Made by a program: the position numbers and the translations under genes | Shown here: piece after piece, positions 35,211 to 64,000 of the stretch | How the letters are laid out: each line of letters opens with the position of its first letter | How positions within the stretch are numbered: the stretch's first letter is position 1 | Source: a bacterium | GTDB taxonomy: Bacteria > Patescibacteriota > Patescibacteriia > Magasanikbacterales > GWA2-37-8 | NCBI GenBank assembly: GCA_043810165.1 | Contig: JBDROJ010000030.1 | Coordinates: 866-64,865, forward strand | Reading direction: 5' to 3' | DNA length: 64,000 nt | Notes under the pieces: model-generated | The model's database searches: none | Told to the model about the DNA's origin: nothing | The model's input: only the letters and a program-made list of their open reading frames with translations

Positions 35211-35211
35211 T

Positions 35212-39885: not shown

Positions 39886-39890
39886 CATAT

Positions 39891-42771: not shown

Positions 42772-42777
42772 TTAGAA

Positions 42778-43617
42778 TTAGTTATTGTCCAATATATTGT
42801 CCAATAGAAAAAAGTTAATTTTATTGGAATTTAGCAAATGGGCTATGGTTTTTATGTAGGGTTTTAAGAAGTTCGAATCCCGGTGCCCGAGCCAAGAGAG
42901 ATTGAGCGAGGTTAAAGCCTCGTTTTTTCTTTTTGTTAAGCCAAAATTCAACGGTTCTAACCCTCTCATTTTAGCATTTAACTTTTGAGCGTTGTCATAA
43001 ATAGGAAGCAACCAATTATTGACTGTAATTAGCACTTTTTTGTCTTCAATTACTCGGTTCGAACCTAGATTATTAAGTACCTGTTTTTTCTTAGTTTTAT
43101 CACCGTCTTTAAACTTTTTCAGAGCATAAGCAGAAAAAATAAACTTTTCTTTAGTTAGTTCAATAATTTCTTCCTCGGTTTTTTGTTTACTATCTTTACT
43201 ATTAAATTTTTCAACTTGTTTTTTAAGATTCTTTTTTTCTTTCAAAAATTCGTCATCATCCAATAATCCTCTGGCTCTCATCATAGTTAATTCAGATAAA
43301 TTGCTTTCTAACTCTTTAACTTTATCATCTCGGCTATTATCAATTACTTTGTTTTCTTGTTTTGTTTTACTTTTTTGACTATCCAAATAATCCAAACTCC
43401 ACTGTAAAAATAGTGGGTGCATTTCTAACTTTTCCAGTTTTTTAGTAATATTTTTGGTTATCTCCTTTTCTTCTACTGATCCTTGTCTGCAAACAATAGT
43501 TTTTTTCTTATGGGTACAGTGGTAATAATCATAACCTTTAACTTTGTTTTTAGCCTTAATATATTTAGTATGATGTTCTGCTGTGATACCACAACCACAA
43601 TAATTACATTTAAACAT
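42778..43617 (-). pseudogene. Second truncated large-serine-recombinase fragment (C-terminal ~280 aa only). It is ~95% identical to 17080-17910 and ends in a tRNA-3'-like sequence.
   Basis: It starts at the zinc ribbon MFKCNYCGCGITAEHH. The nucleotide repeat spans 42880-43630. The C-terminus ...SWLGHRDSN is encoded over aGTTCGAATCCcggtgcccgagCCA (T-loop consensus GTTCGAATCC). Confidence 0.65.
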
Positions 43618-43759
43618 ACCTGCATAAGTAAAATTGACACATCCTAACTACAGTACCATGTTTTAGTTATGCACCACCATTAATATTATAGAGCCTTTTT
43701 CTGTTTGACCAAAGCCTTTTTTTATGGTTTTATATTATTAGTGTAATAATTAGATTTTT

Positions 43760-44890: not shown

Positions 44891-44900
44891 AATATAGGGG

Positions 44901-45734
44901 ATGTCTTTTGACTACGAACAATCAATTTGGGGGCAGGGAACTGCCAAAAAGAGGTGGACAGATTCCACTAGTTTTCGTTTACATCAGGCGCTATCAGCCT
45001 TGTCGCATTTGAAAGCAGGGGATATGGTATTGGAAATTGGATGCGGAGCCGGGCAGTTTATTAGAGCCATCAAAAAATATAGATCTGATTTGCAATATAG
45101 CGGCTGTGATATCAGCACTTCAGCTTTGTCCAGAGCGGATCAATACAGAGACGGCGTGCAATATGACCTGTCCCAAGCGCAGAGCCTTCCCTATGAAGAT
45201 AATTATTTTCAAGCCGTATTGATTTTTGATGTATTAGAACATGTTGAAGATCCGAGGACCATGCTTGCTCAGGCCAAGCGCATATTAAAAAAAGACGGGA
45301 TCTTGCATTGTTTTGTCCCTTGCGAAGCAGACAAATTGTCATTGTGGTATTGGCTGAAGAAAATAAAAATAAAATCTGATTTGACTGAAAGATACGCTGG
45401 CCATATTCATAAATTTTCCAGACAAAGCCTGAAAGATCTTTTGATCAATCATGGTTTTGAGATTATACAGTCTAGATATAGTAGTCATTGTTTAGGGCAG
45501 TGGCTGGACTTGGTTGTTTTTTTGGCCATGGATAGATCATGCAGGCGGACCAGACAAGATCAAATGAATAACGAACAATTTTTTAAGGAATATGATAAAG
45601 ATCGTGGTCGGATTTTTTTTATTTTTAAAAGATTGATTAATTGGCTGATCAATTTGGAAAATTGGTTATTCAGCCGTTTGCCATCATCAAATGTGCACAT
45701 TACAAGCATGGTTTTGAAAGAAAATATAAAATAA
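44901..45734 (+). CDS. Class I SAM-dependent methyltransferase
   Basis: VLEIGCGAGQF (motif I) and IFDVLEHVEDP (motif II/post-I). Confidence 0.7.
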   Translation: MSFDYEQSIWGQGTAKKRWTDSTSFRLHQALSALSHLKAGDMVLEIGCGAGQFIRAIKKYRSDLQYSGCDISTSALSRADQYRDGVQYDLSQAQSLPYEDNYFQAVLIFDVLEHVEDPRTMLAQAKRILKKDGILHCFVPCEADKLSLWYWLKKIKIKSDLTERYAGHIHKFSRQSLKDLLINHGFEIIQSRYSSHCLGQWLDLVVFLAMDRSCRRTRQDQMNNEQFFKEYDKDRGRIFFIFKRLINWLINLENWLFSRLPSSNVHITSMVLKENIK

Positions 45735-45746
45735 ACCGTATTTCTA

Positions 45747-46396
45747 TGAGAATAGCTCACATTGTTCCTTCAACTTTTGAATATTTTGATGATATTAAAA
45801 TGGATGCTTTTGAAACAGTAGAGCAATTGAGCAAGTATGGAATTGAATCAATCATCACCACTCTGCAATATAGCCAAGCCAAGCGCAGGGAAAAAGAAAA
45901 AATAAGCGGAAAGGCAGGAGGCCCTGCCGGCAAAGCGCCTTCATATAAATACCAAGGCATGCAGAGCATTATCCAGGCCATAGAGAATTTTAGCAGTTAT
46001 GACTTGGTGCATTTGCATTGTCCTTTTTTGGGAGCAGGTGGCAAGATACTTGAATGGAAAAGGAAAAATCCGGACACGCCTTTGGCTGTTACTTATTACC
46101 GGCCTGTTGAGCTAGTAGACTTTTTAAGTTATTTTATCAGGCTGTATAATAGCTATTATTTGTCTAAAATTATGCGCCTGGCAGAAGTGGTAATGTTTTT
46201 TCCACAGACCTATCCAAAGTCAAGATTTTCATTTTTAGATCAAAAAAAAATGGTTGATATAACGCCGACAGATCATGATGAACACAGTTTAACAGTGGAC
46301 TTGACTAATATTTGCAATAAGGTAAAATTAGATAACGCTATTATTGATAAACTATCAATTAGCAAGTTAGTATATGTTTATTCTTTGTTAATTTAA
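45747..46396 (+). CDS. GT4 N-terminal-domain-like protein (paralog of the first half of 43760..44890, without the catalytic C-terminal half)
   Basis: MRIAHIVPSTF...SYDLVHLHCPFLGAGG parallels MKIAHMVSTFP...GFDVVHLHFPFYGSAH. The start is set at ATG 45747. Confidence 0.4.
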
Positions 46397-46407
46397 TAAT
46401 AAGCACT

Positions 46408-47247
46408 ATGAGTGAGAAAAAAACTTTTTTTGCAAGTTTGCAACCAAGGAGCGCTTTGTTAGTGGGGGCCGTGGCCGGGATTTTGGCTATTTGTACAATT
46501 GGTTTTATTATAATGGGAGTGATTTACCTGCGTGGTGATTCAGATGATGCCGGCAGTAATACAAGCACTTCAACCGCTACTGCTACCAATATTGTTGACC
46601 AACAACAACCTGTGGCTGTTGAGGTTACGAAAACTGATAAGCCTAAAGTTGAATTGTTTATTATGTCATATTGTCCATACGGCTTGCAAATGCAAAAAGC
46701 ATTTTTACCGGTAATGGAACTATTAAAATCAAAAGCTGACATGGATGTTAAGTGGGTTTCATACATAATGCATGGTAAAAAAGAGATTGATGAAAATGAT
46801 CGCCAATATTGTATTCAAAAAGAACAAAATGATAAATACCTGGCTTATGCTACTTGTTTTACAGGCAAAGATGATTATAGCGCGTGTTTAAAAACCGCTC
46901 AAATTGATGAAAGTAAAATGAATGCCTGCATTAAGGCAACTGACAGTCAGTACAAAACCACGGAAAAATACAATGACAAATCAACTTGGTTAAGCGGTAA
47001 CTATCCGGTATATTTGGTTCATGGTGAAGCAAATACAAATTACCAAGTGGGCGGTTCGCCAACTTTGGTAATTAATGGTACCCAAGTCCAAGTTTCTCGA
47101 ACTCCGGAAGCTGTTAAGTCAGCAGTTTGTAGTAGCTTTACAACAACTCCTGATGAATGCGCAAAAACTTTAAGTACTAGCGCAGCTGTTCCAGGTTTTG
47201 GAACAGAAGTCGGAACTGATACGGCCGGTGTTGATTGTGAGGGCTAA
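46408..47247 (+). CDS. Membrane-anchored thioredoxin-fold protein (DsbA-like thiol-disulfide oxidoreductase)
   Basis: N-terminal TM and CPYG active-site motif (CxxC-type) in ELFIMSYCPYGLQ. Confidence 0.55.
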   Translation: MSEKKTFFASLQPRSALLVGAVAGILAICTIGFIIMGVIYLRGDSDDAGSNTSTSTATATNIVDQQQPVAVEVTKTDKPKVELFIMSYCPYGLQMQKAFLPVMELLKSKADMDVKWVSYIMHGKKEIDENDRQYCIQKEQNDKYLAYATCFTGKDDYSACLKTAQIDESKMNACIKATDSQYKTTEKYNDKSTWLSGNYPVYLVHGEANTNYQVGGSPTLVINGTQVQVSRTPEAVKSAVCSSFTTTPDECAKTLSTSAAVPGFGTEVGTDTAGVDCEG

Positions 47248-49995: not shown

Positions 49996-51783
49996 TTATC
50001 TTTTTAATACAGCCATATAAGTACTATTGGGTATGTCGACCTTGCCCTTGCCAATGGACAGCATTTTTTTCTTGCCTTTTTTTTGTTTTTCCAATAGTTT
50101 TCTTTTGCGAGTAACATCACCGCCGTATAATTTGGCAGTCACATCTTTACGCATGGCAGATAGTCTTTCGGAGGCAATTATTTTTCCGCCAACAGCGGCT
50201 TGGATTTTTAAAACGAATTGTTGGCGCGGTAAAGTTTTTTTAAGGGTTTCTACAATTTTTTTACCAATTTTAAAGGCATCATCACGCCAAACCAGTGTGG
50301 CTAATGCCTCAACCTGGTCTTCGGCCACCAAAATATCCAGCTTAACCACGTCTGTCTTTTCGTACTGATTAAATTCATAGTTCATTGAGCCATATCCGGA
50401 GGTCGTAGTTTTTAGTTTATCATAAAAATCGGTTATAAGCGAGGCTAGAGGAATTTCATAATGCAACATGGCTCGCTGGTCATTGCCAGTGCTCAAATAC
50501 TCAGTATTTAAGTAGCGTCCTTTTTTATCAATTACCAAGTTCATAATATTGCCTATATATTCTTTTGGAGTAATAAGGTCAAGTTTCATCCATGGTTCCA
50601 TTATCTCGCCAACTCGGCTGGCATCGGGCAGTTCTTGAGGACTATGTATGACTTTTTTTTGTCCATTAGTTTCGGTTATATTGTAGGCCACGCTAGGCAC
50701 AGTTACAATTATATTTAAGCCATGCTCACGGCGCAATCGTTCTTGGAAAATATCCAAGTGTAGAAGGCCTAAAAAACCGCAACGAAAGCCAAAGCCCAGA
50801 GCCAGAGAATTTTCTGGTTCATAAGCCAGAGAAGAGTCACTTAATTTTAATTTGTCCAAAGCTTCGCGCAGTTGTTCATAATCACCGCCTTCTTTTGGAA
50901 AGATTCCAGCATAAACCATGGGTTTTACTTCTCGGTATCCTGGTAGGGCTTTGGCTCCGGAGCCGGAGGCTGCGATAGTATCTCCAACACGGCATTGTTT
51001 TAAGTCTTTAAGGCCGGTAACAACATATCCGATTTCACCATTTAATATCTTTTCACTGGGTTTAAACTTAGGAGTATAATATCCAATCTCTAAAATTTCA
51101 GCATCTTTTTGCGTACCAAAAAAATTGATTTTATCTCCCTTGCACAATTCTCCGTCAAATACTCTGACCGAGGCAATCACGCCACGGTAATCATCATAAT
51201 GAGAATCAAAAATCATGGCTCGGCTAGTACGGCCTGTATTGTCAGGCGGAGCAGGTATTTGTTTAATAATCGCTTCCAATAACTGTTCCACGCCTTGGCC
51301 GGTTTTGGCTGAACATAACAAGATGTCTTGTTCCCTGCATCCGATCAAGTGGATTATTTCTTGTTTTACCTTATCAATGTCAGCCGAAGGCATGTCAATT
51401 TTGTTGATCACCGGAATAATGGTCAGATCCTGCTCTATGGCCAAATAAAGATTGCCTATTGTCTGGGCTTGAACGCCTTGGGTTGCATCCACGAGCAGTA
51501 TAGTGCCTTCTACTGCGGCAAGTGATCGGGATACCTCATAATTAAAGTCCACATGGCCCGGAGTATCAATTAAATTCAAAATATAGTTTTGATATTTCAT
51601 TCTTACCGGTGTAAGTTTAATGGTAATTCCGCGTTCTTGCTCAAGCTCCATTGAATCAAGAAGTTGGGATTTCATATTTCTTTTTTCCACTGTATTGGTT
51701 AATTCTAAAAACCTATCAGCCAGCGTGGATTTGCCATGATCAATATGTGCAATTATACAGAAGTTGCGAAGGTTTTTGTTCAT
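49996..51783 (-). CDS. lepA: Translation elongation factor 4 (LepA)
   Basis: NFCIIAHIDHGKSTLADR G1 motif, DTPGHVDF G3 motif, and a LepA C-terminal domain. The start is trimmed to MNKNLRNF (ATG at 51783) so that it does not overlap the upstream gene. Confidence 0.9.
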   Translation of the reverse strand: MNKNLRNFCIIAHIDHGKSTLADRFLELTNTVEKRNMKSQLLDSMELEQERGITIKLTPVRMKYQNYILNLIDTPGHVDFNYEVSRSLAAVEGTILLVDATQGVQAQTIGNLYLAIEQDLTIIPVINKIDMPSADIDKVKQEIIHLIGCREQDILLCSAKTGQGVEQLLEAIIKQIPAPPDNTGRTSRAMIFDSHYDDYRGVIASVRVFDGELCKGDKINFFGTQKDAEILEIGYYTPKFKPSEKILNGEIGYVVTGLKDLKQCRVGDTIAASGSGAKALPGYREVKPMVYAGIFPKEGGDYEQLREALDKLKLSDSSLAYEPENSLALGFGFRCGFLGLLHLDIFQERLRREHGLNIIVTVPSVAYNITETNGQKKVIHSPQELPDASRVGEIMEPWMKLDLITPKEYIGNIMNLVIDKKGRYLNTEYLSTGNDQRAMLHYEIPLASLITDFYDKLKTTTSGYGSMNYEFNQYEKTDVVKLDILVAEDQVEALATLVWRDDAFKIGKKIVETLKKTLPRQQFVLKIQAAVGGKIIASERLSAMRKDVTAKLYGGDVTRKRKLLEKQKKGKKKMLSIGKGKVDIPNSTYMAVLKR

Positions 51784-51791
51784 GTTTTTAA

Positions 51792-53111
51792 TTAAATTGA
51801 TGCCGCAGCAAAGGCAAATAAGGTCATAAAGCCCAATAATACATGCGTGACAATCCACAATACAACTAACGATATTAGTAATTTTTCGTTGGATAATGTT
51901 TTTCTTGGTATGTATGATAGAATTGCCAACAGTAAGAATCCGAGTATGTTTACCAGTAGAATGGACATCCATTTATATGGGATAATAGAAGAAAATGCAT
52001 AAGTACTTCCAAGAATCCAGAGATCGGTAATTCTTAAGCCAAAAATTATTATCGTTTCATATATTGGGGGGGCGGTTTTCGGTACAGTTTTTAAGGCTAA
52101 GTGAAAAATGTCAGGAATTATTTTACACAACAAAGTAATTACCATACTCATTCCAGTTGCTGGAATTAAGAAAAATAGACCTTCTTTTTTTCTGATTGCT
52201 AAATATAGTATATAGAGGGCTATAAGAAAAACCAAATTGACTATGATTTCGTGAATGCTAGTATTGTATCCATCTATCAAGTAATTATATTGTTTTGTTT
52301 TACAATTTTGTTTAAGCCAAAGAGTTTTAATTCGACTACAAAGCTGGTAGTTTTTGGTTTTACTGGATATATAATCATAACAATGGTCTTTTAACAGGTC
52401 ATTTTTTATTAAATTACATTTTTTTTCATCTAATAATAATTTTATACAATAACCAAAATTTTCACTATCAGTTTTAAAATAATAGCAAGGAGTTGGGTCC
52501 TGATTTTTTTGCACTAAAAAATCTATACATCTGGTTTTTTCTTGCTGGGGTAGTATATCTTTGCAGGTGTCATTTGGTAAACTTGTTTTTCTGTCTTTAA
52601 ATAAGGCTTCTATACAATAAAAATTACCTGTTTTAAGACATAGGTCGGTATCCTGGGTAGCAACGGCTACTTTGGCTTTGCAATAAGATCGTTCATCTTT
52701 GAATATATCATCAATTTTGTTGCAACAAGGAGTGGTTTTACATCTTTCTAGATAGCACCACCTTCGATTATTAGAAGATCTTAATTCATCACAGCTATAA
52801 TTTGGTTTTATTATTTTCAAAGCATCATCATAACATCCATCTCTAGTGCCAGTGCTTTGGTCAGAATGAAATTTATTACTTGGATTAAAAGAATAGTCGC
52901 ACAGAGACAAGTCGGCTTTATTTGCAGTAATTATTTTTTCAATGCAATATATATCAACCCAGCTTTCTTTAGTAGTACATTTTATTATATGCTCATCATA
53001 TTCTATTTTGGTTGAGGTGGGGATAATAGCGTTCGGGTCTCTGGCCTGACTAATACCGGGAATCAACAAAATAAAGGCGATAAGGACTAAATAGATTTTG
53101 ATTGATCGCAT
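51792..53111 (-). CDS. Cys-rich secreted domain plus C-terminal multi-TM protein (hypothetical)
   Basis: Signal peptide. About 30 Cys in repeated C...YC / C..D..C spacing across ~280 aa. Then 4-5 TM helices. Confidence 0.35.
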   Translation of the reverse strand: MRSIKIYLVLIAFILLIPGISQARDPNAIIPTSTKIEYDEHIIKCTTKESWVDIYCIEKIITANKADLSLCDYSFNPSNKFHSDQSTGTRDGCYDDALKIIKPNYSCDELRSSNNRRWCYLERCKTTPCCNKIDDIFKDERSYCKAKVAVATQDTDLCLKTGNFYCIEALFKDRKTSLPNDTCKDILPQQEKTRCIDFLVQKNQDPTPCYYFKTDSENFGYCIKLLLDEKKCNLIKNDLLKDHCYDYISSKTKNYQLCSRIKTLWLKQNCKTKQYNYLIDGYNTSIHEIIVNLVFLIALYILYLAIRKKEGLFFLIPATGMSMVITLLCKIIPDIFHLALKTVPKTAPPIYETIIIFGLRITDLWILGSTYAFSSIIPYKWMSILLVNILGFLLLAILSYIPRKTLSNEKLLISLVVLWIVTHVLLGFMTLFAFAAASI

Positions 53112-54940: not shown

Positions 54941-55636
54941 TTAATAAGCAGGAGTGCTTGTATTTGTTTGTGGATAATAATTAACTATCAAATTGGCTAC
55001 ATTGGTTCCGGAGTTGTTTTGGTCGGTTTGGGTGTAAAATGATCCAGCTATGCTTTGTTTTTTGAAAGAGAATCCTTTTTGAGTATCAGTATCACTTTCA
55101 GGAGTGATTACATAATCATATCTTAGAAGCATACTTTGATAATATGAATACAGAAATTTTAAATCAGCATTTAAGTTTTTCCATTCTACTTTAATAATAT
55201 TCCGCTTATCACTCACCGGCGAGTTAACTATATTCCACATATTTTTGTAAATGGAAAGTTTGTCCTTGCCTGGCTCAACCATTTGATCTTTTTCCAAAAC
55301 CGAAATTAAAGGAGTTAAAATTAATTTTGGAAAAATAGCCGATACCTCAATTACTCTATTTTTATATTCACCGGATACATAAGTAATTGTTTCAATATGT
55401 TCTTTATCATAAATCGGTATCTCGGCTGGAAAATCGCTTGGTATGGCCGATACTTGTTGAGGGCCCACGCCAAGAGCATATTTTAATAGCAATACAATAA
55501 TTACTATAAAAATAATAAAACAACCGCAACCTCCCACGCAACTGCGTTTTATGACAGAAAAGGCAGTATATTTGCGGGTAATTTCTTCCAAAGGCGGTTC
55601 TTTGATTTCAACGTCTTTTATTATGTCGCGTCTCAT
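54941..55636 (-). CDS. Hypothetical membrane-anchored protein
   Basis: ORF track only. One N-terminal TM. Confidence 0.3.
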   Translation of the reverse strand: MRRDIIKDVEIKEPPLEEITRKYTAFSVIKRSCVGGCGCFIIFIVIIVLLLKYALGVGPQQVSAIPSDFPAEIPIYDKEHIETITYVSGEYKNRVIEVSAIFPKLILTPLISVLEKDQMVEPGKDKLSIYKNMWNIVNSPVSDKRNIIKVEWKNLNADLKFLYSYYQSMLLRYDYVITPESDTDTQKGFSFKKQSIAGSFYTQTDQNNSGTNVANLIVNYYPQTNTSTPAY

Positions 55637-55749: not shown

Positions 55750-55866
55750 TGTCATTGCGAGCGTAGCGAAGCAATCTCGTTATTACTAGAACCAACGAGA
55801 TTGCCGTGTCGTCGCTCCGCTCCTCCTCGCAATGACAATGTTATCACACTTCTCGCAATGACAGAT
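55750..55866. repeat. GTCATTGCGAG-family nested palindromic repeat (full copy H)
   Basis: gtcattgcgagcgtagcGAAGCAATCTCGTTattactagaaccAACGAGATTGCcgtgtcgtcgctccgctcctcctcgcaatgacaatgttatcacacttctcgcaatgac. Confidence 0.85.
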
Positions 55867-55880: not shown

Positions 55881-57272
55881 TTGAATATAAAAGTATTAAT
55901 ACAAATTTTTATGAAAATATCTTTTCATGGTGCGGCTGGTGAAGTCACCGGATCGTGCAGTTTGGTAAAAACTGAACAAGAAAAATTTTTGATTGATTGC
56001 GGAATGTTTCAGGGTGGTAAAAAAACCGAACAGCAGAATTTGGAGGAATTTAGTTTTAATCCAATGGAATTAGATTGTGTGATTATTACTCATGCCCACC
56101 TTGATCACATTGGTCGTCTGCCATTATTAATTAAAGCCGGTTATCAAGGTCCAATTTATGCTACTACTGCTACTGCCGATTTAGCCAAATTAATTTTAGA
56201 AGACGCTTTGCATGTCATGCAACAAAATTACAAACATCACAGCGATCCGGTTTTGTATGATAGTACAGATGTATCAGCTTGCTTGCAACAGTTTAAGATA
56301 ACTGACTATGGTTCAGCTACTATCATTAAAAACAAAGCAAAGTTTACTTTTCATGATGCAGGACATATTTTTGGATCAGCTTTTGTGGAGATAGAAGCTG
56401 GTGGTAAACATGTAATATTTTCTGGCGACGTGGGCAATTGTGATGTGCCAATTTTAAGAGAGACCGAAAATTTACCCAATGGACTAGACCTGGTGGTCTG
56501 CGAATCAACTTATGGTGGACGTATTCATGAAGCCAAAACCAACCAACAAAGAGAAGAAATAATTGAAGGTATGATTGTTGAAGCCCTTGGTCGTGGTGGT
56601 ACATTAATGATACCTTCTTTTGCTTTAGAACGTACCCAGCAATTATTATATTTATTAAACGAATTAATTGACAGAAAAAAAGTTTTGCCGCGCGTGCCCA
56701 TATTTTTAGACAGCCCGCTCGCAATCAAAGCCACCGAAGTATATCGTCGTTTTCCTAAATATTATGATCAAGAAGCCAGAAAATTATATCAAGCCGATGA
56801 CGACCTATTTAATTTCCCGGGTTTAACTTTTACTGAAACCGTGGAACAATCAAAAAGCATTAATCAGGTGCCTGGCTCAAAAATAATTATTGCCGGAGCC
56901 GGCATGATGAATGGCGGTAGAATTTTGCATCATGCAATGCGCCATTTGTCAGACAACAGCAGTACATTATTATTTATCGGATACCAAGCTAATGGTACAT
57001 TGGGTCGGCAAATATTGGATGGAGTATCGCAAGTAAAAATAATGAAAGAAAAAATACCAGTTAAATGTAAAGTGCGCGCCATCGGTGCTTTGTCAGCTCA
57101 TGCTGATCAATCTAAAATTTTAGATTGGTTGGGTAACACCAAGGTAGCGCCTAAACAAGTGATTTTAAATCATGGAGAAATTGACCAGTCTGAAGTTGTG
57201 TTGCAGAGGATTGAGCATGAATTAGGAATTAAAACAAAGTTGGCAGAAATTGATCGGTGGTTTAAAATTTAA
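55881..57272 (+). CDS. MBL-fold beta-CASP ribonuclease (RNase J/CPSF-like)
   Basis: HAHLDHIGRLP (MBL motif 2, HxHxDH), downstream His and Asp motifs and a beta-CASP region. The start may be the Met at 55911. Confidence 0.7.
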   Translation: MNIKVLIQIFMKISFHGAAGEVTGSCSLVKTEQEKFLIDCGMFQGGKKTEQQNLEEFSFNPMELDCVIITHAHLDHIGRLPLLIKAGYQGPIYATTATADLAKLILEDALHVMQQNYKHHSDPVLYDSTDVSACLQQFKITDYGSATIIKNKAKFTFHDAGHIFGSAFVEIEAGGKHVIFSGDVGNCDVPILRETENLPNGLDLVVCESTYGGRIHEAKTNQQREEIIEGMIVEALGRGGTLMIPSFALERTQQLLYLLNELIDRKKVLPRVPIFLDSPLAIKATEVYRRFPKYYDQEARKLYQADDDLFNFPGLTFTETVEQSKSINQVPGSKIIIAGAGMMNGGRILHHAMRHLSDNSSTLLFIGYQANGTLGRQILDGVSQVKIMKEKIPVKCKVRAIGALSAHADQSKILDWLGNTKVAPKQVILNHGEIDQSEVVLQRIEHELGIKTKLAEIDRWFKI

Positions 57273-57325: not shown

Positions 57326-57439
57326 AAGAACACCTATTAAGAATCGTCCAAGAATCAAGTCGGGCGATTTTTTTGTTAATTAGATTTAATTACCAAAATC
57401 TGTGGATAACTGTGGCTATTTGTGTTTGACCAGGATGGA

Positions 57440-57482
57440 GAAGTGGTGTAAAATGGATTGTAGTGGGGAAAGGTGGGGAATT
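57440..57482 (+). promoter_or_regulatory. Candidate MraZ operator: direct GTGG(G/T)G repeats upstream of mraZ
   Basis: GTGGTGtaaaatggattgtaGTGGGGaaagGTGGGGaattt. The last two boxes are spaced 10 nt. MraZ is known to bind tandem TGGGN repeats in its own promoter. Confidence 0.45.
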
Positions 57483-57526
57483 TTTAGAAAAACCTCAAAA
57501 TTTTTCCAGTTGTTTAAGCTCTATAC

Positions 57527-57958
57527 ATGTTCATCGGTGAATATAGCCACAACCTAGACAATAAAGGAAGGCTGGCCATACCAGTCAAATTTAGGCGTGA
57601 TTTGGCTAAAGGAGCCGTGGTCACACACGGACTTGATAAGTGCTTGTTTTTATACACTGGAACAGAATGGCAAGTACTGGCCGAAAAGCTAGCTGGCTTG
57701 CCGTTTAGCCAGGCCAAAGCCAGGGCATTTGCCCGCCTAATGCTGGCCGGCGCAATGGATGTAAAATTGGACAAGCAAGGTCGGATCATATTGCCTGAAT
57801 ATTTGCGCAGGTTCGCAGGTTTAAAGAAAAATACAATAGTAGCTGGATTATTCAACCGCTTGGAAATCTGGGATGATGAAATATGGAATAACTATAAAAC
57901 TAAAACCGAGAAACAAAGCAGTGAAATAGCGGAAAGAATGGGGGAGTTAGGAATCTAG
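57527..57958 (+). CDS. mraZ: Transcriptional regulator MraZ
   Basis: MFIGEYSHNLDNKGRLAIP and a second DxxGR repeat LDKQGRIILP. 143 aa. Confidence 0.9.
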   Translation: MFIGEYSHNLDNKGRLAIPVKFRRDLAKGAVVTHGLDKCLFLYTGTEWQVLAEKLAGLPFSQAKARAFARLMLAGAMDVKLDKQGRIILPEYLRRFAGLKKNTIVAGLFNRLEIWDDEIWNNYKTKTEKQSSEIAERMGELGI

Positions 57959-57961: not shown

Positions 57962-58858
57962 ATGAAGCATGAACCTGTACTATTACAACAAGTGATTAGC
58001 AACTTGCAGTTAAAGCCCGGCATGAACGTGGTTGACTGTACCTTGGGCGACGGCGGACATGCCCGTGCTATTTTAGAAAAATTAGGTAAAAAAGGAAAAT
58101 TATTGGGAATTGATGCTGATGTAGAAGCTGTTTTAAGAGCAAAAAGGTTTTTATATGAATTTGAGGATCGATTTATTGCAGTCAGAGATAACTTCGTTAA
58201 TTTAAAAAAAATTGTCCATGGCCAGGACTTTGGTCAGGTGAATGCGATATTGATGGATCTGGGCTGGTCTAGCCAGCAGTTTTCGGAAAGAGACCGCGGA
58301 TTCAGTTTTCAAAATCAAGATGAGGTGCTGGACATGCGTTATGATGTTAATTCAGAGAAAACCGCTCAGAGCGTGCTAAATAATTATTCAAATGAAGATC
58401 TGTCAAATGTGTTAAGGCGTTATGGCGAAGAAAAGTTTTATCAAGATATTGCTGATAATATAGTTATCCACAGAAAAAAACAAACAATTGAAAAAGTAGG
58501 ACAATTAGTAGAAATTATTTTACAGGTATATAGAGAAAAATTAAATACAGACAAGGATATTCCGTATCTGGGCCATATTCATCCGGCCACTAAAGTTTTC
58601 CAAGCCTTGCGCATTGAAGTCAATGACGAGCTTGAAGCATTAAGACAAGCATTGCCTCAAGCATTGGATATATTGGCTCCGGAAGGGCGCCTGGCAGTCA
58701 TAAGCTTTCACTCTTTGGAAGATCGAATTGTCAAACGATTTTTTCAAAAACAGAAAGATGCCAAAATTATAACTAAAAAACCAATTACCGCTTCATTCCA
58801 GGAAGTTAAGAAAAATCCTAGATCCAGAAGCGCCAAATTAAGAATTTTACAAGTATAA
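57962..58858 (+). CDS. rsmH: 16S rRNA (cytosine1402-N4)-methyltransferase RsmH
   Basis: HEPVLL...VDCTLGDGGHA...LGIDAD are RsmH signatures. It follows mraZ. Confidence 0.9.
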   Translation: MKHEPVLLQQVISNLQLKPGMNVVDCTLGDGGHARAILEKLGKKGKLLGIDADVEAVLRAKRFLYEFEDRFIAVRDNFVNLKKIVHGQDFGQVNAILMDLGWSSQQFSERDRGFSFQNQDEVLDMRYDVNSEKTAQSVLNNYSNEDLSNVLRRYGEEKFYQDIADNIVIHRKKQTIEKVGQLVEIILQVYREKLNTDKDIPYLGHIHPATKVFQALRIEVNDELEALRQALPQALDILAPEGRLAVISFHSLEDRIVKRFFQKQKDAKIITKKPITASFQEVKKNPRSRSAKLRILQV

Positions 58859-58862: not shown

Positions 58863-59222
58863 ATGTCCTTTAAACGCAAAGTACAAATGCAATATCGCTA
58901 TTTTATTCAGTCTTTGTTTTCTTTCCGCTTGCCAAGTTGGCTAAGTTGCATGGCCACGCGCGTGGTTTTGCTTTTAATTATAATTTTATTTGGCTCTGCA
59001 TATATTGTTAAGACTGCTACCACGGCTTCCAGCGGATATAAAATTCAGGACTTGGAAAAGCAAGTTTATGCTTTGCATGAAGACATAACAAGATTGGAAG
59101 TTAATTTGGCAGATTATAGTTCGATGGCCAGTATTCAAGAGCGATTAACAGGCAGTAATATGGTAGTGGTAAGTGAAGTTAAATACCATGATTCGGACAG
59201 GCAAACAGTAACTAAAAAATAA
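58863..59222 (+). CDS. ftsL: Cell division protein FtsL (small bitopic coiled-coil protein)
   Basis: 119 aa. One TM VVLLLIIILFGSAYIV, then a coiled coil. It sits at the ftsL position of the dcw cluster. Confidence 0.6.
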   Translation: MSFKRKVQMQYRYFIQSLFSFRLPSWLSCMATRVVLLLIIILFGSAYIVKTATTASSGYKIQDLEKQVYALHEDITRLEVNLADYSSMASIQERLTGSNMVVVSEVKYHDSDRQTVTKK

Positions 59223-59303
59223 AAGCAAAACAATTAATACGCAACTCTCTTGATGAGAGTTTTTTTATTGTGAATAAATTATTTTTAGTGTATAATATAG
59301 TAT

Positions 59304-59429
59304 GTAATTGCGAGCGCAAGTGTTGCTGTCATTGCGAGCGTAGCCAAGCAATCTCGTCGGTTCTAGTAATAACGAGTTTGCTTCGTCGCTCCGCTCCTCG
59401 CAATGACAGTGAACCGCTCGCAATGACAG
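59304..59429. repeat. GTCATTGCGAG-family nested palindromic repeat (full copy I, central loop inverted)
   Basis: gtaattgcgagcgcaagtgttgctgtcattgcgagcgtagccaAGCAATCTCGTcggttctagtaataACGAGtTTGCTtcgtcgctccgctcctcgcaatgacagtgaaccgctcgcaatgac. Confidence 0.85.
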
Positions 59430-59484
59430 AGAAAGTTAGGCTAAATTAATATAATTATTTAATAAATTATTTAATTAAAATTTT

Positions 59485-59817
59485 ATGGTAGAAGAAAAAC
59501 AACAATTAAATTTTTTAGAATCATATATCTTAGAAGTTTTAAAACAAAATGGTTTTGATGACTTAACTCCGGAAAATCAAGAAGAATTTTTGCCACAATT
59601 TGTGATTGAGGCTCAAAGAAGAATCGGCGCTACACTTATGCCTTTATTAGAAGAGGAAAAGGCTGAAAGCATGATGTCCATGGTTGATAATCCTGACACT
59701 ACAGATGAACAGTGGTGGAATTTTTGGAATCAAGCCGTTCCGAATTTTAAAGAAACAGTGAGTAAGATTTTAGAAAATTATACAAACGATTTAAAAAAAG
59801 TCTTGTCCGGATTATAA
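59485..59817 (+). CDS. Hypothetical acidic 110-aa protein
   Basis: ORF track only. Confidence 0.3.
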   Translation: MVEEKQQLNFLESYILEVLKQNGFDDLTPENQEEFLPQFVIEAQRRIGATLMPLLEEEKAESMMSMVDNPDTTDEQWWNFWNQAVPNFKETVSKILENYTNDLKKVLSGL

Positions 59818-59832
59818 TTAAATAATAAATAT

Positions 59833-62800
59833 ATGATCCGTTTAGCTCCTGGAAATTCAAATCAAGAAAACGATCCTTCTCAACAGCGAGAGGGTTTTAG
59901 GGATTTTAATCCCGGTAATTACGAAAATGGGAATTTAATCACTTATTATCAAGGCGGACAATGGAAACTAGGAAAAGTGTCTTTAGAAGCTACGCCTGCT
60001 GATGATATTAAAGTTGAAGATGGATATATAAAGATGTCCATAAAAGAAGTTGAAGAAGGAATTACTAAAAAACCTGGAAGAGTTATTTTGACTAAAACAC
60101 CTCGCTTAATTAAATTACCCGATACTTATGGTCCTGGCATACCTTATGTTTTGGACAAAGTAACTTATTTTTATGGTGATTTACACTCTGGACCGAGCGG
60201 TGAAGTGTTGGTTGATCTTAAAGCTTTGGATAAAAAGAATAAAGATTTATTAGGAGTGAATATTGACTTGTTAAACAATGTAAGGACAATAGAAAGCCAG
60301 GAAATTGATTTGGTTAAAAAAATTCAAGAGCTGGCCAATGAAGCTCGGCGCGTTTCCGGAGGCAAAACACAGGAAATAATGGATAATTTGATCAAGCTTA
60401 GAAAAACTATTGCCGGAATGCCGGTGCATCTTGGCTTTATAAGCGACTGGTCGGAAATGGCTCATCATAAAGTTGAATCCATTAACGAAAAGATACAAGC
60501 ACAAATGCAAGAGGTTCAAGAATCTCTTAAAGCTTTTGAAGAAAATATCAAACAAGCAGGAGAATCATCTGCGCAGGAAAAAAATCAAGCTGAAAAATCC
60601 AAACTTGCTCGTAAAATTTTAAGAGTCGCCGATCATATTTTGGCGGAAAATGATAACGCAATGAAAAAGAATCCGGAACTTGCGAAATGGCAGGAGTATG
60701 AAAAAAATCTTGAAAAATATAATAAAGACAAGGAAGAATTTGAAAAGAATAATAAGCCGAAAAAAGGCGATAAAGACAAAGATAAGGACAAAGGCGACGA
60801 CAAGAAGCCCGAATTTACTCAAAAGCCTCCTGTCAAACCAAGCGGAGAAAAGCCAAAATTACCAAGTGAAGATCCTGGTGCCAGAGAAAAAATCATGGCT
60901 GAATTGTATGATAAGCTTGATGGCTTAAATGATAAATTGTTGGTAGCTTATAGAGGTGATTTAAAAAATGAAGTTGATTCGCTTAGAAAAAAACATTGTC
61001 AGGAAAATAACTTGTCAGGTTTGGAAGATTATCCTAAAGATGGCGATACATATAAACAAGTAAGCACAGAGAAATTTATTGAAGTATTAGAAAGATGGAA
61101 AGGTTTGGCTCCGGAATCTACGCCTGACCAAGCTCCGGCCGTGGCTGATCCCAATAGTGCGCAAGAACAGCCATCATCGCCAGAAGTCAAAGACTATGCC
61201 AGCCAGCAAATTGAGGATTTAAATCAATTGCAAATAAATTTATTAGAAAAAGCTAAAAAAATAAATGACTTTCATAAGAGAGGTAAATTTGGATTACAAT
61301 TAATGGATATTGATGACAAAGAAATAAAGAGTTTGAACAAGAAAAGTAACAATTTTGAAAACCATGTATTGGAAGTCTATAAACATCTGGACAATATTGA
61401 TCTGGAAATTGAAGCTGAACTGCATACACAGGAAGAGTTCTCTCAAGTTAGGCCAATTGAACACCATGAAAAAAGGCAAGAAACTTTGGATTTAAGTGGG
61501 CTTGATATTATGGAGGTAATGAGAGAAAATAAAGATCGATCCAAAAAAATGCAGGATTTTATGGTTGGCCTGTATAATTCTGAATTGAGCGGAAAAGAAC
61601 CGGATGAAACAAATATCCAAGCTTTTAAGGAGCTATTTAATACGCCAGCCAACCAAGAAATTCTTGGCAAGCTTAAAAAGCGCGGTGTCAGAAGCTGGGA
61701 GCATTTCCAATCATTAATAGACAAACATGCCCAGAAAATGGTTGGAGTTTTGCGTAAAATGATTCAAGATCAGTTGGCACGACAGATAAACATGAAATCC
61801 AGCGTTATTGGCAAGCTTTGGGCACAAAAATGGCGATTGGGCATTCAAGTTGGCGTTACCATATTGGCTGCGGGCAGTATGGCCATTGGTTTTAAAGCTT
61901 TATTGTCAACCGCGGCAATTGGTGTCGTGCTTGGTGCGGCCGCTAGTAAATTAGGCTTGGGCGTGGTTACTGCCGGCGCATTTGGCTCTATTGGCGCTAT
62001 GGCCACTGGAACCGGTAAATTAGTGCATTCAGTTTTTGATAAGCTTGGCTTTAAGGATGCGCGTGAAAAGAAAATAGAAAAATACGAAAGAGAACTTAAA
62101 GTAAAAGTGATTGAAGAACTGCAAGGCAAATGGTTAGATGCCAACGAACTGGAAAATACTACGGCAATGTTTTCTGCCATAATGACAGAAGGCCTAAATA
62201 GCGGTATTGAAGAAGAAAATCAAAAAATTGGCTTGACTCAAGAGCGAATCAAAGATGTGTCTGCGGGTTTATCTGCACAAGAAAAGCAAGAGCTTGACAA
62301 AGAGTTTGCTTCTTTGGGACGTTCTGAAAGAGAAATATACTTGCAAGCCATTGACAAATTAAGAGCACAAGAAAATACCGAACCAACATTTAAACAAAAA
62401 TTAGATTTAATAGTTGCTATTGGCAGGCTAAAAGCCATTGATCCAAGTCATCCCGAACAAATGGCTGAAAAAGAGCCTGGCATGCTGGAAGAAATATATA
62501 AGAGCACTGTCGGAAAAATGGCTATTGGTTTTGTGGTTGGCGCCATGACCACAAATGAATATACTAGATTTGCTTTGGGTGCTGGCGGTGGCGGAATTGC
62601 CAGCATGGTTGCGGTTGACCGTTTGGAAAGTTCTTTAAATGAAAAAAAATCAGAAAAATTATTTCAGAAAAAACTAGATCGATTTAGGAATATTATTAAA
62701 GTATTTGATAATCCTAACTTCACAACTGATAAACAAGATTTAGCTGGTTTACGAACAGTGTACGCCGAATTTAAACTTTTATTAGAAGGCAAAACCAGTG

Positions 62801-64000
62801 GCAAAATTGAAAATGAAAATCTGGTTAAGTATATTCAAGATTATGATATTGTTAAGGCCGAGATTCGTGATTGTTTGAATAAAGTGCAAAGAATAATATT
62901 GAGTGCTGGTTTGGAAGAAATTAAAGATTTGGGAGATCTGGTGGTTGCACAAGCTGAAGAGAAAGTTGGTTGGTTGTCTAAATTCAAGAAAAAAGCCGGA
63001 TGGGGCGCTGTAAAGGTTGGTGCTGGAATTGTCGGCGGTTTTGTCGCAGGCATGGTAGCCGCTGGTATGGGTGAGCGATACCACAGGCATTTGACTATTA
63101 ACAAGCATTCCATTCTGAATTCAACTGGCGCTTCGGGCGTGCAAGAAGCAAAACCCGCAGTTAATTTGGATGCGGTTGTGGATGCTACGCCAAAACCCAG
63201 TGCCAATGAGTTATTGCAAACAAAAAACAGTCCGTTTTTTGCCAAAATGGGTGTTGCACCAACTGAAGTCAACGGCAAATTGCATGTTGAGTTTGAATTG
63301 GGTAAAAATAATGTGCCTTCCACCAGATCCAAATTTTTTCGCCTACTTGCTTTGAATGATATGAAAGAAGATATGATGAGAGATCAATTAATCAAACCGG
63401 CCGAGCAAGCCAAGGTTTTAAATGTATCAGCCAATTTGAGAGCTTTGGCCGCCGGGCATGATATCCCTGGCGCAAATATCAAGGCCAGCGAAGTTAAAGA
63501 TATAATCAGTTTTGACGGCAAAAAGATTATGGTCAAAGATTGGCAAGCTTTGTTTGAAGCAGATAATAATGTAATGGATAGACTGCAAGAGCATGCTTCA
63601 AAAAAATTTGACGGCCCCAATGGAGAATGGGCGGCTGCAGCCGCTAAATCAGGCAAAGCCAATGCTTTGAGGTATGTGGATCTTGTTAATTGGAAAAAAG
63701 ACCTGAATGCCATAGGTTATGATGAAAATCAGATGTCGGATATCCATGTGGAAAAAGGGCATTTTCCTAAACCAGCTCCGACCGAAGTTGATGCTGGCAA
63801 AGCATATTTTGACAAGAATTTTGACCCTTATACTGCTAGTAATGACCCCGCGGACTTTACTTTAAATCCTTTTGATATTCATCCTAAGACTGGTGCTGAA
63901 TCAGTTGTAATTCAAGGTCCTGTTCCAGACCTCAAAAATGTGGTTCCGAACATCTCTAATAATACTACCAGCGGGAGTAGCGGTACATCTACTGGTGGTG
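59833..64000 (+). CDS. Giant (>1389 aa, 3'-partial) hypothetical protein with coiled coils, a KD/KP-rich linker and three glycine-zipper amphipathic or TM segments. It is not in the ORF track because no stop occurs in the window.
   Basis: Manual translation from ATG 59833 stays open to nt 64000. GDKDKDKDKGDDKKPEFTQKPPVKP. Gly/Ala-zipper blocks AIGVVLGAAASKLGLGVVTAGAFGSIGAMATGTG, MAIGFVVGAMTT...ALGAGGGGIASMVAV and VGAGIVGGFVAGMVAAGMG. The minus-strand ORFs across this span are frame shadows. Confidence 0.6.
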   Translation, partial: MIRLAPGNSNQENDPSQQREGFRDFNPGNYENGNLITYYQGGQWKLGKVSLEATPADDIKVEDGYIKMSIKEVEEGITKKPGRVILTKTPRLIKLPDTYGPGIPYVLDKVTYFYGDLHSGPSGEVLVDLKALDKKNKDLLGVNIDLLNNVRTIESQEIDLVKKIQELANEARRVSGGKTQEIMDNLIKLRKTIAGMPVHLGFISDWSEMAHHKVESINEKIQAQMQEVQESLKAFEENIKQAGESSAQEKNQAEKSKLARKILRVADHILAENDNAMKKNPELAKWQEYEKNLEKYNKDKEEFEKNNKPKKGDKDKDKDKGDDKKPEFTQKPPVKPSGEKPKLPSEDPGAREKIMAELYDKLDGLNDKLLVAYRGDLKNEVDSLRKKHCQENNLSGLEDYPKDGDTYKQVSTEKFIEVLERWKGLAPESTPDQAPAVADPNSAQEQPSSPEVKDYASQQIEDLNQLQINLLEKAKKINDFHKRGKFGLQLMDIDDKEIKSLNKKSNNFENHVLEVYKHLDNIDLEIEAELHTQEEFSQVRPIEHHEKRQETLDLSGLDIMEVMRENKDRSKKMQDFMVGLYNSELSGKEPDETNIQAFKELFNTPANQEILGKLKKRGVRSWEHFQSLIDKHAQKMVGVLRKMIQDQLARQINMKSSVIGKLWAQKWRLGIQVGVTILAAGSMAIGFKALLSTAAIGVVLGAAASKLGLGVVTAGAFGSIGAMATGTGKLVHSVFDKLGFKDAREKKIEKYERELKVKVIEELQGKWLDANELENTTAMFSAIMTEGLNSGIEEENQKIGLTQERIKDVSAGLSAQEKQELDKEFASLGRSEREIYLQAIDKLRAQENTEPTFKQKLDLIVAIGRLKAIDPSHPEQMAEKEPGMLEEIYKSTVGKMAIGFVVGAMTTNEYTRFALGAGGGGIASMVAVDRLESSLNEKKSEKLFQKKLDRFRNIIKVFDNPNFTTDKQDLAGLRTVYAEFKLLLEGKTSGKIENENLVKYIQDYDIVKAEIRDCLNKVQRIILSAGLEEIKDLGDLVVAQAEEKVGWLSKFKKKAGWGAVKVGAGIVGGFVAGMVAAGMGERYHRHLTINKHSILNSTGASGVQEAKPAVNLDAVVDATPKPSANELLQTKNSPFFAKMGVAPTEVNGKLHVEFELGKNNVPSTRSKFFRLLALNDMKEDMMRDQLIKPAEQAKVLNVSANLRALAAGHDIPGANIKASEVKDIISFDGKKIMVKDWQALFEADNNVMDRLQEHASKKFDGPNGEWAAAAAKSGKANALRYVDLVNWKKDLNAIGYDENQMSDIHVEKGHFPKPAPTEVDAGKAYFDKNFDPYTASNDPADFTLNPFDIHPKTGAESVVIQGPVPDLKNVVPNISNNTTSGSSGTSTGG

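Follow-up and report, generated by a model that had tools for sequence, protein, structure and literature searches.

The window, the whole stretch of DNA analysed here, is 64,000 nucleotides long. At its end a plus-strand frame runs from an ATG at 59833 to base 63999 with no stop in 1389 codons and is still open at the window end (59833..64000), as the sequence-only reading had described; the other five frames contain 40–161 stops each over the same span. With the window's base composition, a stop-free run of 1389 codons has a chance of ~10^-46.5. A deposited 1679-aa protein, P0001 ('MAG: hypothetical protein ABIH87_03570 [bacterium]', from a contig of 65,935 bp), starts with exactly this translation, which makes up 83% of it; because of this identity the gene should end near contig position 64872. 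At the N-terminus the two closest relatives read MIRVA where the window protein has MIRLA, which supports the ATG, and the window protein runs colinear over its length with both P0002 (1646 aa) and P0003 (1704 aa). We conclude that the large ORF is a real, intact gene. Its absence from the ORF track, remarked on earlier, arises because ORFs running off the source end are left out and only shadow ORFs are listed over this span; it reflects a listing rule, not biology. The product, at 1679 aa, is large, but it is not 'giant' by the usage of a giant-gene preprint in which protein size bins begin at 5,000 aa (10.1101/2023.11.21.568195).

The large gene had been placed directly after ftsL, but a 110-aa ORF (59485..59817) and a 262-nt intergenic region intervene; these and all features below are on the plus strand. 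The 110-aa product, which has no hydrophobic segment, resembles Pfam PF18908 (DUF5663) in size, sequence family and place upstream of a large gene. Its own score is sub-threshold (21.3 bits, E=4e-4, gathering cut-off 23.7), but it is 31–57% identical (E 1e-19 to 1e-41) to the DUF5663 genes, for which PF18908 hits are recorded, found ahead of the large gene at seven other loci. Its stop and the ATG of the large ORF downstream are 15 nt apart, and 4-nt overlaps between genes occur in loci L001 and L002; this short or overlapping spacing suggests co-transcription. After the ftsL-like gene, a terminator-like hairpin (59243–59261; 7-bp stem, 5-nt loop) followed by the T-run TTTTTATTGT (together 59243..59271) parts the mraZ-rsmH-ftsL unit from the module, and an analogous hairpin follows ftsL in a Magasanikbacteria locus, L008. 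The intergenic region (59268..59452) contains two promoter-like sites (59268–59296 and 59423–59452) and, at 59303–59428, one copy of a dispersed palindromic repeat that folds as a long hairpin (-59.5 kcal/mol, z=-5.1).

Domain boundaries can be drawn along the large protein, which begins with a beta-rich domain (aa 30–143; 59920..60261). AF2 gives strands over aa 35–143 (10-residue block pLDDT 59–84, mostly >73); BLAST finds the domain kept in seven relatives, and an eighth, P0008, aligns in MAFFT. It is predicted to be cytoplasmic. Its best Foldseek PDB matches, the UHRF1 tandem Tudor domain (E 0.3–1) and PWWP domains (rmsd 3.2–4.0 over 68–73 columns), are not significant (overall E 0.3–2, all >0.1) and are accompanied by no sequence match, so that they serve as a lead only; from the model, the domain is possibly a tandem Tudor/SH3-like barrel. 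A long helical region follows (aa 144–306; 60262..60750), with AF2 helices at 144–173, 178–200, 203–208, 211–278 (68 residues) and 281–306 (pLDDT 84–92). The low-complexity KD-rich linker that the sequence-only reading had picked out comes next, as a disordered Lys/Asp/Pro-rich stretch, KKGDKDKDKDKGDDKKPEF...PPVKPSGEKPKLP (aa 307–347; 60751..60873). AF2 shows no secondary structure over aa 306–347, with pLDDT <50 at 316–324, and it is the linker's position and proline-rich character, not its sequence, that are conserved across the family. The second helical region by AF2 secondary structure (aa 348–655; 60874..61797) holds a disordered Pro/Ser/Gln-rich insert (aa 424–454) and the family motif G(V/I)R(S/D)W at aa 618–622; L585, L614, G618 and W622 are invariant in ten family members. 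Two more AF2 helical domains alternate with the hydrophobic blocks described below, one between blocks 1 and 2 (aa 728–892; 62014..62508; helices 740–865, pLDDT ~55–82; F735, L828 and Y836 invariant) and one between blocks 2 and 3 (aa 929–1054; 62617..62994; helices 909–1041, pLDDT 61–83; G986 invariant).

The three Gly/Ala-zipper hydrophobic blocks reported previously are indeed present, at aa 667–727, 893–928 and 1055–1081, and their 124 residues carry 6 of the protein's 14 GxxxG motifs and 12 [GAS]xxx[GAS]xxx[GAS] motifs. Block 1 (61831..62013) has a Kyte–Doolittle peak of 1.86 and the conserved pattern VGGG...AGG..GG.IRG, with 28 Lys+Arg in the 15-residue flank before it and 39 after (summed over ten members). 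It may be a membrane hairpin with both ends cytoplasmic; in the window protein its length would allow three helices, and the topology would then be the reverse of that in relatives. Block 2 (62509..62616) is weakly hydrophobic (8 Gly in 36 residues, two GxxxG motifs, G919 invariant) and shorter than in relatives; both flanks are positive (29 and 42 Lys+Arg), and it may form a re-entrant or interfacial hairpin. Block 3 (62995..63075; Kyte–Doolittle peak 1.75) is asymmetric, Lys+Arg falling from 40 in the preceding flank to 12 in the following one (sum for nine members), with a negative net charge in the following flank in seven of the nine, as a single transmembrane helix with its N-side in and C-side out would have. 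AF2 pLDDT is <50 in blocks 1 and 2 and ~36–57 in block 3. Hydropathy and charge counts are the sole bases for this putative topology, which is supported by the lack of an N-terminal signal peptide, the positive charge on both flanks of blocks 1 and 2 and the drop across block 3.

Beyond block 3 lies an alpha/beta domain of ~170–180 aa (aa 1131–1310; 63223..63762), predicted to be outside the cell and common to P0002, P0003, P0007, P0010, P0013, P0014, P0017 and P0018. AF2 folds it confidently (pLDDT 88.8, pTM 0.87); it has no Foldseek neighbour in the PDB (best E=2.5, TM<=0.21) or BFVD (best E=0.49), and a PDB sequence-profile search gave no match. The same domain occurs on different cores, in shorter proteins and in otherwise unrelated proteins, and an alternative C-terminal module is common to P0004, P0008 and a divergent 1563-aa protein of locus L006. 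The part after block 3 also holds Ser/Thr/Gly/Pro-rich linkers; one, recognized by its low-complexity Ser/Thr/Gly-rich runs (aa 1375–1402), starts at 63955..64000 and leads to a C-terminal tail, to aa 1679, outside the window. For residues 1331–1679 BLAST yields no relative, P0002 and P0003 included. Such a mosaic C-terminal pattern is typical of exposed, ligand-facing regions.

When 1.84 billion representatives were searched exhaustively with HMMER, 17 relatives of the large protein came up, 10 of them at E<=1e-10. The family is conserved: the relatives are mostly 1400–1800 aa long, the bulk of them 1430–1780 aa, and most share an architecture in which a beta domain is followed by helices, three Gly-rich blocks and a variable C-terminus. 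Among 185,579 species genomes a single family locus turned up. No Pfam or NCBIfam model matched the window protein or its 17 relatives, nor did searches of the window protein against PHROGs, PADLOC, the PDB and phage sequences give a match; the profile search likewise gave no PBP or SEDS matches, in agreement with the sequence-only reading. There was no homology or fold match to any characterized anchor, adhesin or envelope protein. The two relatives with source names come from Patescibacteria and Candidatus Magasanikbacteria; the large protein belongs to a rare, lineage-specific family of membrane proteins of the Patescibacteria (candidate phyla radiation). The family's rarity fits an accessory role but gives little statistical power.

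The gene module is conserved as well. At nine other independent loci a 104–125 aa adaptor (DUF5663 in most) and a 62–73 aa helical protein are encoded together with the large gene, and the order adaptor, 62–73 aa gene, large gene holds at all other loci with upstream DNA; in L006 the modules are duplicated in tandem. A Wzz-like/PDZ-like/polytopic membrane trio lies upstream of the module in six of the seven other loci with enough upstream DNA (Wzz-like protein 26.8 bits, cut-off 25.5). The window module has neither the 62–73 aa middle gene nor the trio, and because of these absences it may work differently from its relatives or be decaying. Genes around the large gene in the window include murJ, glycosyltransferases, a sugar transferase and an epimerase, and neighbours across loci, such as infC-rpmI-rplT, smpB and mraZ-rsmH, are housekeeping or envelope genes. 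In small, compact genomes, however, arguments from neighbourhood carry little weight.

From these features we infer what the large protein and its partners might do. The reading that we favour, with low confidence (a probability of roughly 40%), is that the large protein is an envelope-spanning anchor or surface protein made with a small cytoplasmic DUF5663 partner. The first ~1050 residues would stay in the cytoplasm: a beta-barrel-like domain comes first, then long helical rods connected by disordered linkers that are charged or rich in proline, and the Gly/Ala-rich helical hairpins would pin this part to the membrane twice. The final single transmembrane helix would pass the last ~600 residues outside, where the conserved 170-aa alpha/beta domain would be followed by Ser/Thr/Gly-rich linkers and lineage-specific modules. 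On this reading the protein would most likely serve as a structural anchor or surface-display protein tying the cell interior to an external ligand, either an envelope polymer or a host surface, and the DUF5663 protein, elsewhere with the 62–73 aa helical protein, would act as a cytoplasmic assembly or adaptor partner. We counted the envelope-related neighbourhood (the Wzz-like trio; murJ and the glycosyltransferases) for an envelope anchor, and the mosaic C-terminal region for an exposed, ligand-facing part.

MapZ/LocZ, EzrA, TolA and RodZ are bitopic scaffolds of division or the envelope, each with helical regions in the cytoplasm and a domain outside. The large protein is comparable to them, in architecture only, in its large cytoplasmic region, membrane anchor and external globular domain. 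As a lineage-specific scaffold for cell division or the cytoskeleton, akin to MapZ, EzrA or TolA, it would use its cytoplasmic helical rods to organize FtsZ or the divisome, with the anchor holding it and the external domain reading the wall, and would be expressed with or near mraZ-rsmH-ftsL. Long cytoplasmic helices with a membrane anchor fit such a role; neither ftsI nor ftsW follows ftsL in the window, and the order beta-CASP–mraZ–rsmH–ftsL–module recurs in a Candidatus Magasanikbacteria contig (L008), so that the large gene lies near mraZ-rsmH-ftsL in two genomes. However, the module follows mraZ-rsmH-ftsL at these two loci only, and because the MraZ, RsmH and FtsL-like proteins of the two genomes are 78, 51 and 46% identical, inheritance of the gene order accounts for the match no less well than function. 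An unrelated soluble 1724-aa protein stands between ftsL and the module in L008; in the window the terminator-like hairpin, repeat element and promoter-like sites intervene, and the large gene is tied to a DUF5663-like partner of its own. Co-conservation with mraZ-rsmH-ftsL, proposed earlier as a check, was found in the one Magasanikbacteria locus but not in the six of seven loci that adjoin the Wzz-like trio rather than dcw genes. The earlier argument that the gene sits where ftsI or ftsW would be therefore loses its functional force, and its position after ftsL is probably incidental. Moreover, 18 representatives among 1.84 billion proteins, and one locus among 185,579 species genomes, are far too sparse for a core divisome component. 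The protein has no sequence or fold similarity to the four scaffolds, greatly exceeds them in size and carries two additional Gly-rich hairpins, and its family has a mosaic, fast-evolving external part, a rare distribution and usually non-division neighbours. We consider a divisome scaffold, as first suggested, unlikely.

Distinctly improbable, in our view, is a delivered effector, polymorphic toxin or alpha-helical pore former, whose Gly-zipper blocks would insert in a target membrane and whose variable C-terminus would carry the activity. LXG polymorphic toxins of type VIIb secretion are partnered by small helical Lap proteins, and the two small helical proteins encoded upstream in relatives could by analogy be chaperones or targeting factors of a large protein with C-terminal modules exchanged between cores; the tandem modules of L006 fit this too. 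Yet the window protein has no LXG domain, signal peptide or recognizable secretion domain, and toxin, immunity, PADLOC and PHROGs searches gave no match. No toxin or immunity gene or secretion ATPase lies nearby, no conserved small 'immunity' gene lies downstream, and secretion-system genes are not consistently beside the module across loci. The zipper-like blocks share with the glycine-zipper segments of Gly-zipper_Omp, Gly-zipper_YMGG, Rick_17kDa_Anti and VacA-like GxxxG proteins small residues four apart in hydrophobic segments. This likeness is at motif level, with no match to Pfam glycine-zipper models at E<=0.1, and says nothing on pore formation. The searches gave no fold match to pore-forming toxins, and Foldseek none to pore formers of the ClyA or colicin type. 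The N-terminal beta domain sets the protein apart from LXG toxins, and the membrane core, not a trafficking domain, is most conserved. The positive charges flanking its segments are patterned as in a stably inserted, resident membrane protein, contrary to the secreted, toxin-like or pore-forming product entertained by the sequence-only reading and consistent with the envelope anchor preferred here.

Like many phage tape measure proteins, the large protein is long, rich in helices and equipped with hydrophobic Gly-rich segments, and recombinase, R-M and helicase genes lie at 1.6–21 kb of the window. Nevertheless, part of a mobile element or prophage is very improbable: neither PHROGs nor a tblastn search of 50,697 phage records gave a match, the C-domain has no BFVD fold match, the possible mobile region is 38 kb from the large ORF, and the chromosomal context is of housekeeping or envelope genes at every locus. 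A chance frame, chimeric assembly or decaying pseudogene, to which the missing middle gene and shortened block 2 might point, is hardly credible given the ~1e-46 chance of the open frame, the conserved start residues and the full-length colinearity with relatives from independent samples.

The plus-strand frame that the sequence-only reading had described as continuous proved open from the ATG at 59833 to the window end, over 1389 codons, and its translation is identical throughout to the first 1389 residues of P0001, a 1679-residue protein recorded as 'MAG: hypothetical protein ABIH87_03570 [bacterium]' and carried on a contig of 65,935 bp. The ORF track does list only shadow ORFs over this span; since ORFs that run off the end of the source go unlisted, the omission reflects a listing rule rather than a biological oddity. 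The closest relatives, P0002 and P0003, begin with MIRVA and the window protein with MIRLA, an agreement that supports the assigned start codon. A read-through fusion with the preceding DUF5663-type gene was considered and rejected; the two share a frame, yet every relative has them as distinct genes.

An exhaustive HMMER search with residues 480–1679 against 1.84 billion cluster representatives returned 17 relatives, of which 10 reach E≤1e-10 and most have 1430–1780 residues. With 18 representatives among 1.84 billion proteins, the family is rare. Nine relatives align with P0001 from the N-terminal region through the last hydrophobic block. The family, taken as P0001–P0005, P0008, P0009, P0011, P0012 and P0015, has a conserved core marked by a G(I/V)R(D/S)W motif and a VGGG...AGG..GG.IRG hairpin, together with a further Gly-rich block and a final transmembrane helix. 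Profile positions 1–556 of a core HMM matched the window ORF at E=7e-189, a value obtained with a nine-member alignment that includes the window sequence itself; membership is independently supported by phmmer matches and invariant residues. The two relatives that carry a source name are assigned to a 'Patescibacteria group bacterium' and to 'Candidatus Magasanikbacteria'. In two pattern scans, 185,579 species genomes yielded a single locus, and one scan of JGI metagenomes likewise yielded one, both already known. In a word-indexed homology search the whole ORF retrieved itself alone and residues 1–200 nothing; the core alignment also retrieved nothing, probably because Gly-rich and low-complexity words took up the 8000 candidates considered. 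No meaningful Pfam or NCBIfam match was found in any of the 18 members, the only NCBIfam hit, to the exonuclease VII small subunit (19 bits, cut-off 113), being rejected as a helix-composition artefact. Literature searches on large Patescibacteria proteins gave nothing specific to this family.

The anatomy proposed from the sequence alone was largely upheld. The linker is Lys/Asp/Pro-rich (residues 306–347), and the three Gly/Ala-rich hydrophobic blocks lie at residues 667–727, 893–928 and 1055–1081, holding within 124 residues 6 of the 14 GxxxG motifs of P0001. The claim of coiled-coil stretches stands as far as long helices are concerned, which AlphaFold2 predicted with good confidence. In the model of residues 1–1083, built from a ten-member alignment (mean pLDDT 68.9), a beta-rich domain at residues 35–143 (block pLDDT mostly 73–84) is followed by long helices at 144–306, one of 68 residues (pLDDT 84–92), an unstructured linker at 307–347, helices at 348–423, an unstructured insert at 424–454 and further helices up to residue 655; blocks 1 and 2 have pLDDT below 50, and helical domains lie between the blocks. 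Foldseek found no match to this model in the PDB at E≤0.001; the best matches of the N-terminal domain, to tandem Tudor and PWWP barrels (E 0.3–2), are a lead only.

The N-terminus of the window protein, MIRLAPGNSNQENDPSQQREG, is hydrophilic, the first hydrophobic segment starting at residue 667, and no N-terminal Sec or Tat signal peptide was evident on inspection of the sequence. Summed across the family, Lys and Arg in the 15-residue flanks number 28 before and 39 after block 1, 29 before and 42 after block 2, and 40 before and 12 after block 3, where the net charge of the following flank is negative in seven of nine members. From this charge asymmetry, together with the lack of a signal peptide, we infer that the N-terminus lies in the cytoplasm, that blocks 1 and 2 form returning hairpins and that block 3 makes a final pass, placing the last ∼600 residues outside.

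The external region appears modular. A domain at residues 1131–1310 is common to P0001, P0002, P0003, P0007 and P0010 and recurs in four proteins that are shorter and otherwise unrelated; AlphaFold2 folded it from nine sequences with pLDDT 88.8 and pTM 0.87, and Foldseek found no neighbour for it (best PDB match E=2.5, TM≤0.21; best BFVD match E=0.49). Other members carry instead of it an alternative C-terminal module, common to P0004, P0008 and a divergent protein at locus L006. For the final 350 residues of P0001, BLAST gave no relative, not even in P0002 or P0003. Ser/Thr/Gly-rich runs part the modules. A conserved membrane core bearing exchangeable external modules is expected of an exposed, ligand-facing protein.

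Ahead of the large ORF lies a 110-codon ORF (59485–59817), its stop 15 nt before the ATG. It matches DUF5663 (PF18908) with 21.3 bits (E=4e-4), below the Pfam gathering cut-off of 23.7, and is 31–57% identical (E 1e-19 to 1e-41) to the DUF5663 genes upstream of the large gene in seven loci (L002, L003, L004, L006, L007, L010 and L011), for which the PF18908 matches on record are unmarked in six and marked weak in L002. Its homology to accepted DUF5663 members is thus clear, and it occupies the same gene position. Across the contigs of nine family members, wherever upstream DNA is present, the order is a gene of 104–125 codons, a gene for a helical protein of 62–73 residues and then the large gene. 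The first of these is DUF5663 in L002, L003, L004/L005, L006, L007, L010 and L011, and a different small family replaces it ahead of the two large genes that diverge most, one in L006 and one in L008. We found no literature on DUF5663 or PF18908.

The window holds the adaptor gene of this module and lacks the middle one: the 15 nt at 59817–59833 are all that separate the DUF5663-like gene from the large gene, whereas every other locus examined carries it between the two. An HMM of the 62–73-residue proteins recovers all the others at E≤1e-19 and has no match in the entire 64-kb window (best E=0.02), so that here the middle gene was either lost or moved beyond these 64 kb. At L006, positions 577–13609 hold tandem modules, 108 aa – 63 aa – 1563 aa and 104 aa (DUF5663) – 63 aa – 1579 aa, with a trio of genes (polytopic, PDZ-like and Wzz-like) between them; the first large protein there (1563 aa) has a divergent core and the C-terminal module common to P0004 and P0008.

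Among the window neighbours are murJ and genes for several glycosyltransferases, a sugar transferase and an epimerase. In the best-supported reading, which we adopt tentatively and with a probability of about 0.4, the large ORF would encode, in these envelope-related surroundings, an envelope-spanning anchor or surface-display protein made with small, cytoplasmic partner proteins. A function outside all the readings named here keeps an appreciable chance. Unlikely, in our estimate, is a more ambitious version in which the module would be an unrecognised, Patescibacteria-specific trans-envelope apparatus for host-cell contact or envelope organisation in ultra-small episymbionts; the Gly-zipper hairpins would then join a helical scaffold in the cytoplasm to an external head that can be exchanged and would include a domain with a fold unseen in solved structures.

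In the same surroundings, a cell-surface polysaccharide cluster at 35354–47247 contains a Bac_transf sugar transferase, an S8 subtilase, an NAD-dependent epimerase/dehydratase, GT2 and GT4 glycosyltransferases and a methyltransferase, and upstream of it lie genes for a 1080-aa Big_5 protein (22115–25357) and a dockerin-like protein (25347–26000). murJ is flanked by two membrane proteins without a Pfam match, one of 439 aa (51792–53111, minus strand) whose N-terminal half is Cys-rich and whose C-terminal half is polytopic, and one of 231 aa (54941–55636, minus strand) with one hydrophobic segment. The listed lepA ORF (49996–51972) carries ∼60 extra residues at its N-terminus and runs into the 439-aa ORF, so that the true lepA start is probably further downstream.

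Upstream of the large ORF the order is a beta-CASP/metallo-beta-lactamase gene (55881–57272), mraZ (57527–57958), rsmH (57962–58858) and a 119-codon ORF (58863–59222). The product of the latter matches FtsL profiles weakly, at 22.4 bits for NF053549 (cut-off 55) and 15.3 bits for Pfam FtsL_2 (cut-off 24.6), and thus reaches no curated FtsL cut-off in Pfam or NCBIfam; to call it FtsL-like is reasonable but not proven, on the grounds of its position after rsmH, its one transmembrane segment and its 46% identity to the gene at the same position in Candidatus Magasanikbacteria. The large ORF does not come directly after ftsL. Between the two lie a terminator-like hairpin with a T-run 3' of ftsL (59243–59271), a promoter-like TTGTGA-17-TATAAT (59268–59296), a copy of a palindromic repeat, a second promoter-like site and the 110-codon ORF.

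A role as a division scaffold would draw on mraZ–rsmH–ftsL synteny, which is found in two genomes. In the Magasanikbacteria locus (L008) the order is beta-CASP – mraZ – rsmH – 119 aa – 1724-aa protein – 125 aa – 62 aa – large gene, with identities to the window of 78% for MraZ, 51% for RsmH and 46% for the FtsL-like protein, and again with a terminator-like hairpin 3' of the 119-aa gene. By these identities the window very probably derives from a related lineage of Patescibacteria. Of the seven independent loci whose upstream DNA extends for 2 kb or more, this one is the exception: in the other six the module is preceded by a trio of genes for a polytopic membrane protein of ∼263 aa, a ∼355-aa protein that matches PDZ weakly, and a Wzz-like protein of ∼201 aa (26.8 bits, cut-off 25.5). 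The window holds no homologue of these three at E≤1e-3. The position after ftsL is therefore limited to two related genomes, with transcription signals intervening in both. No Pfam family matched residues 1–1389 at E≤0.1, and the sequence-only reading was right that penicillin-binding protein motifs are missing: none of the 18 family members, the window protein included, gave a Pfam match to the transpeptidase or dimerisation domains of FtsI and other class B proteins. SEDS motifs are likewise missing; FtsW/RodA proteins have a polytopic FTSW_RODA_SPOVE domain with about 10 transmembrane helices, and here there is no Pfam match and there are three hydrophobic blocks only. The terminator, the other surroundings in six loci, the small number of family members and the variability of the external part all weigh against it, and we regard the divisome scaffold suggested earlier as clearly unlikely.

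Two observations concern the loci compared. The 1724-aa Magasanikbacteria protein (L008, 2149–7323), encoded 3' of the ftsL-like gene, is soluble, with no hydrophobic or transmembrane segment and no Pfam match; it matches neither family profile and was rejected as a homologue of the window protein. The Magasanikbacteria MraZ has 190 residues, and its extra N-terminal residues 8–45 are 48% identical, over 42 aa, to a stretch at window 57390–57554 (plus strand), upstream of mraZ and in a different frame; either assembly could contain a frameshift here, or the match could mark a conserved short upstream ORF.

A toxin or pore former, the other suggestion made from the sequence, is distinctly improbable. 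Its support is at motif level only: GxxxG is enriched in the window protein, and Gly-zipper_Omp, Gly-zipper_YMGG and Rick_17kDa_Anti in Pfam gave no match at E≤0.1. A phage or mobile origin, for instance as a tape measure protein, is very unlikely in view of housekeeping neighbours, the lack of a match in PHROGs (E≤0.1) and an empty tblastn search of 50,697 phage records; PADLOC and PDB sequence and profile searches also gave no match to the window protein. An artefactual origin of the ORF is very unlikely too; a stop-free frame of 1389 codons has a chance probability of ∼10^-46.5 at the window base composition, and the remaining five frames carry 40–161 stops across the span.

Patescibacteria make up a large fraction of bacterial diversity, and most are attached to other cells; to our knowledge, almost nothing is known of the proteins that form their envelope and mediate contact with their hosts. 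An unannotated frame has become a defined family with a conserved module, a testable topology and an external domain whose fold is predicted with confidence and has no known structural relative, which gives footholds for structural and localisation studies. It is new in having no sequence or fold relative in the databases searched; we claim no new mechanism. Orphan large proteins are common in Patescibacteria genomes, and for this reason the most probable outcome is a lineage-specific surface protein of local importance.

The repeat upstream of the 110-codon ORF belongs to a dispersed palindromic set with the core CTCGCAATGACA / TGTCATTGCGAG, which has 22 matches with at most one mismatch against 0.16 expected. 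The copies, at 910–1052, 1441–1568, 22075–22109, 26475–26486, 35211–35337, 40575–40586, 55750–55863 and 59303–59428, mostly form intergenic inverted pairs; that at 59296–59445 forms a long hairpin (-59.5 kcal/mol, z=-5.1). No Rfam family matched at gathering scores, and the repeat looks like a REP/MITE-type element. Finally, positions 1588–21000 may be an integrated mobile region: tRNA-Glu and tRNA-Gln (1588–1741) are followed directly by a large serine recombinase (1681–3315, minus strand), and the region further contains a type III restriction-modification pair (10293–14958), a second recombinase-domain protein (17065–18423) and a PIF1-like helicase (19095–20783).
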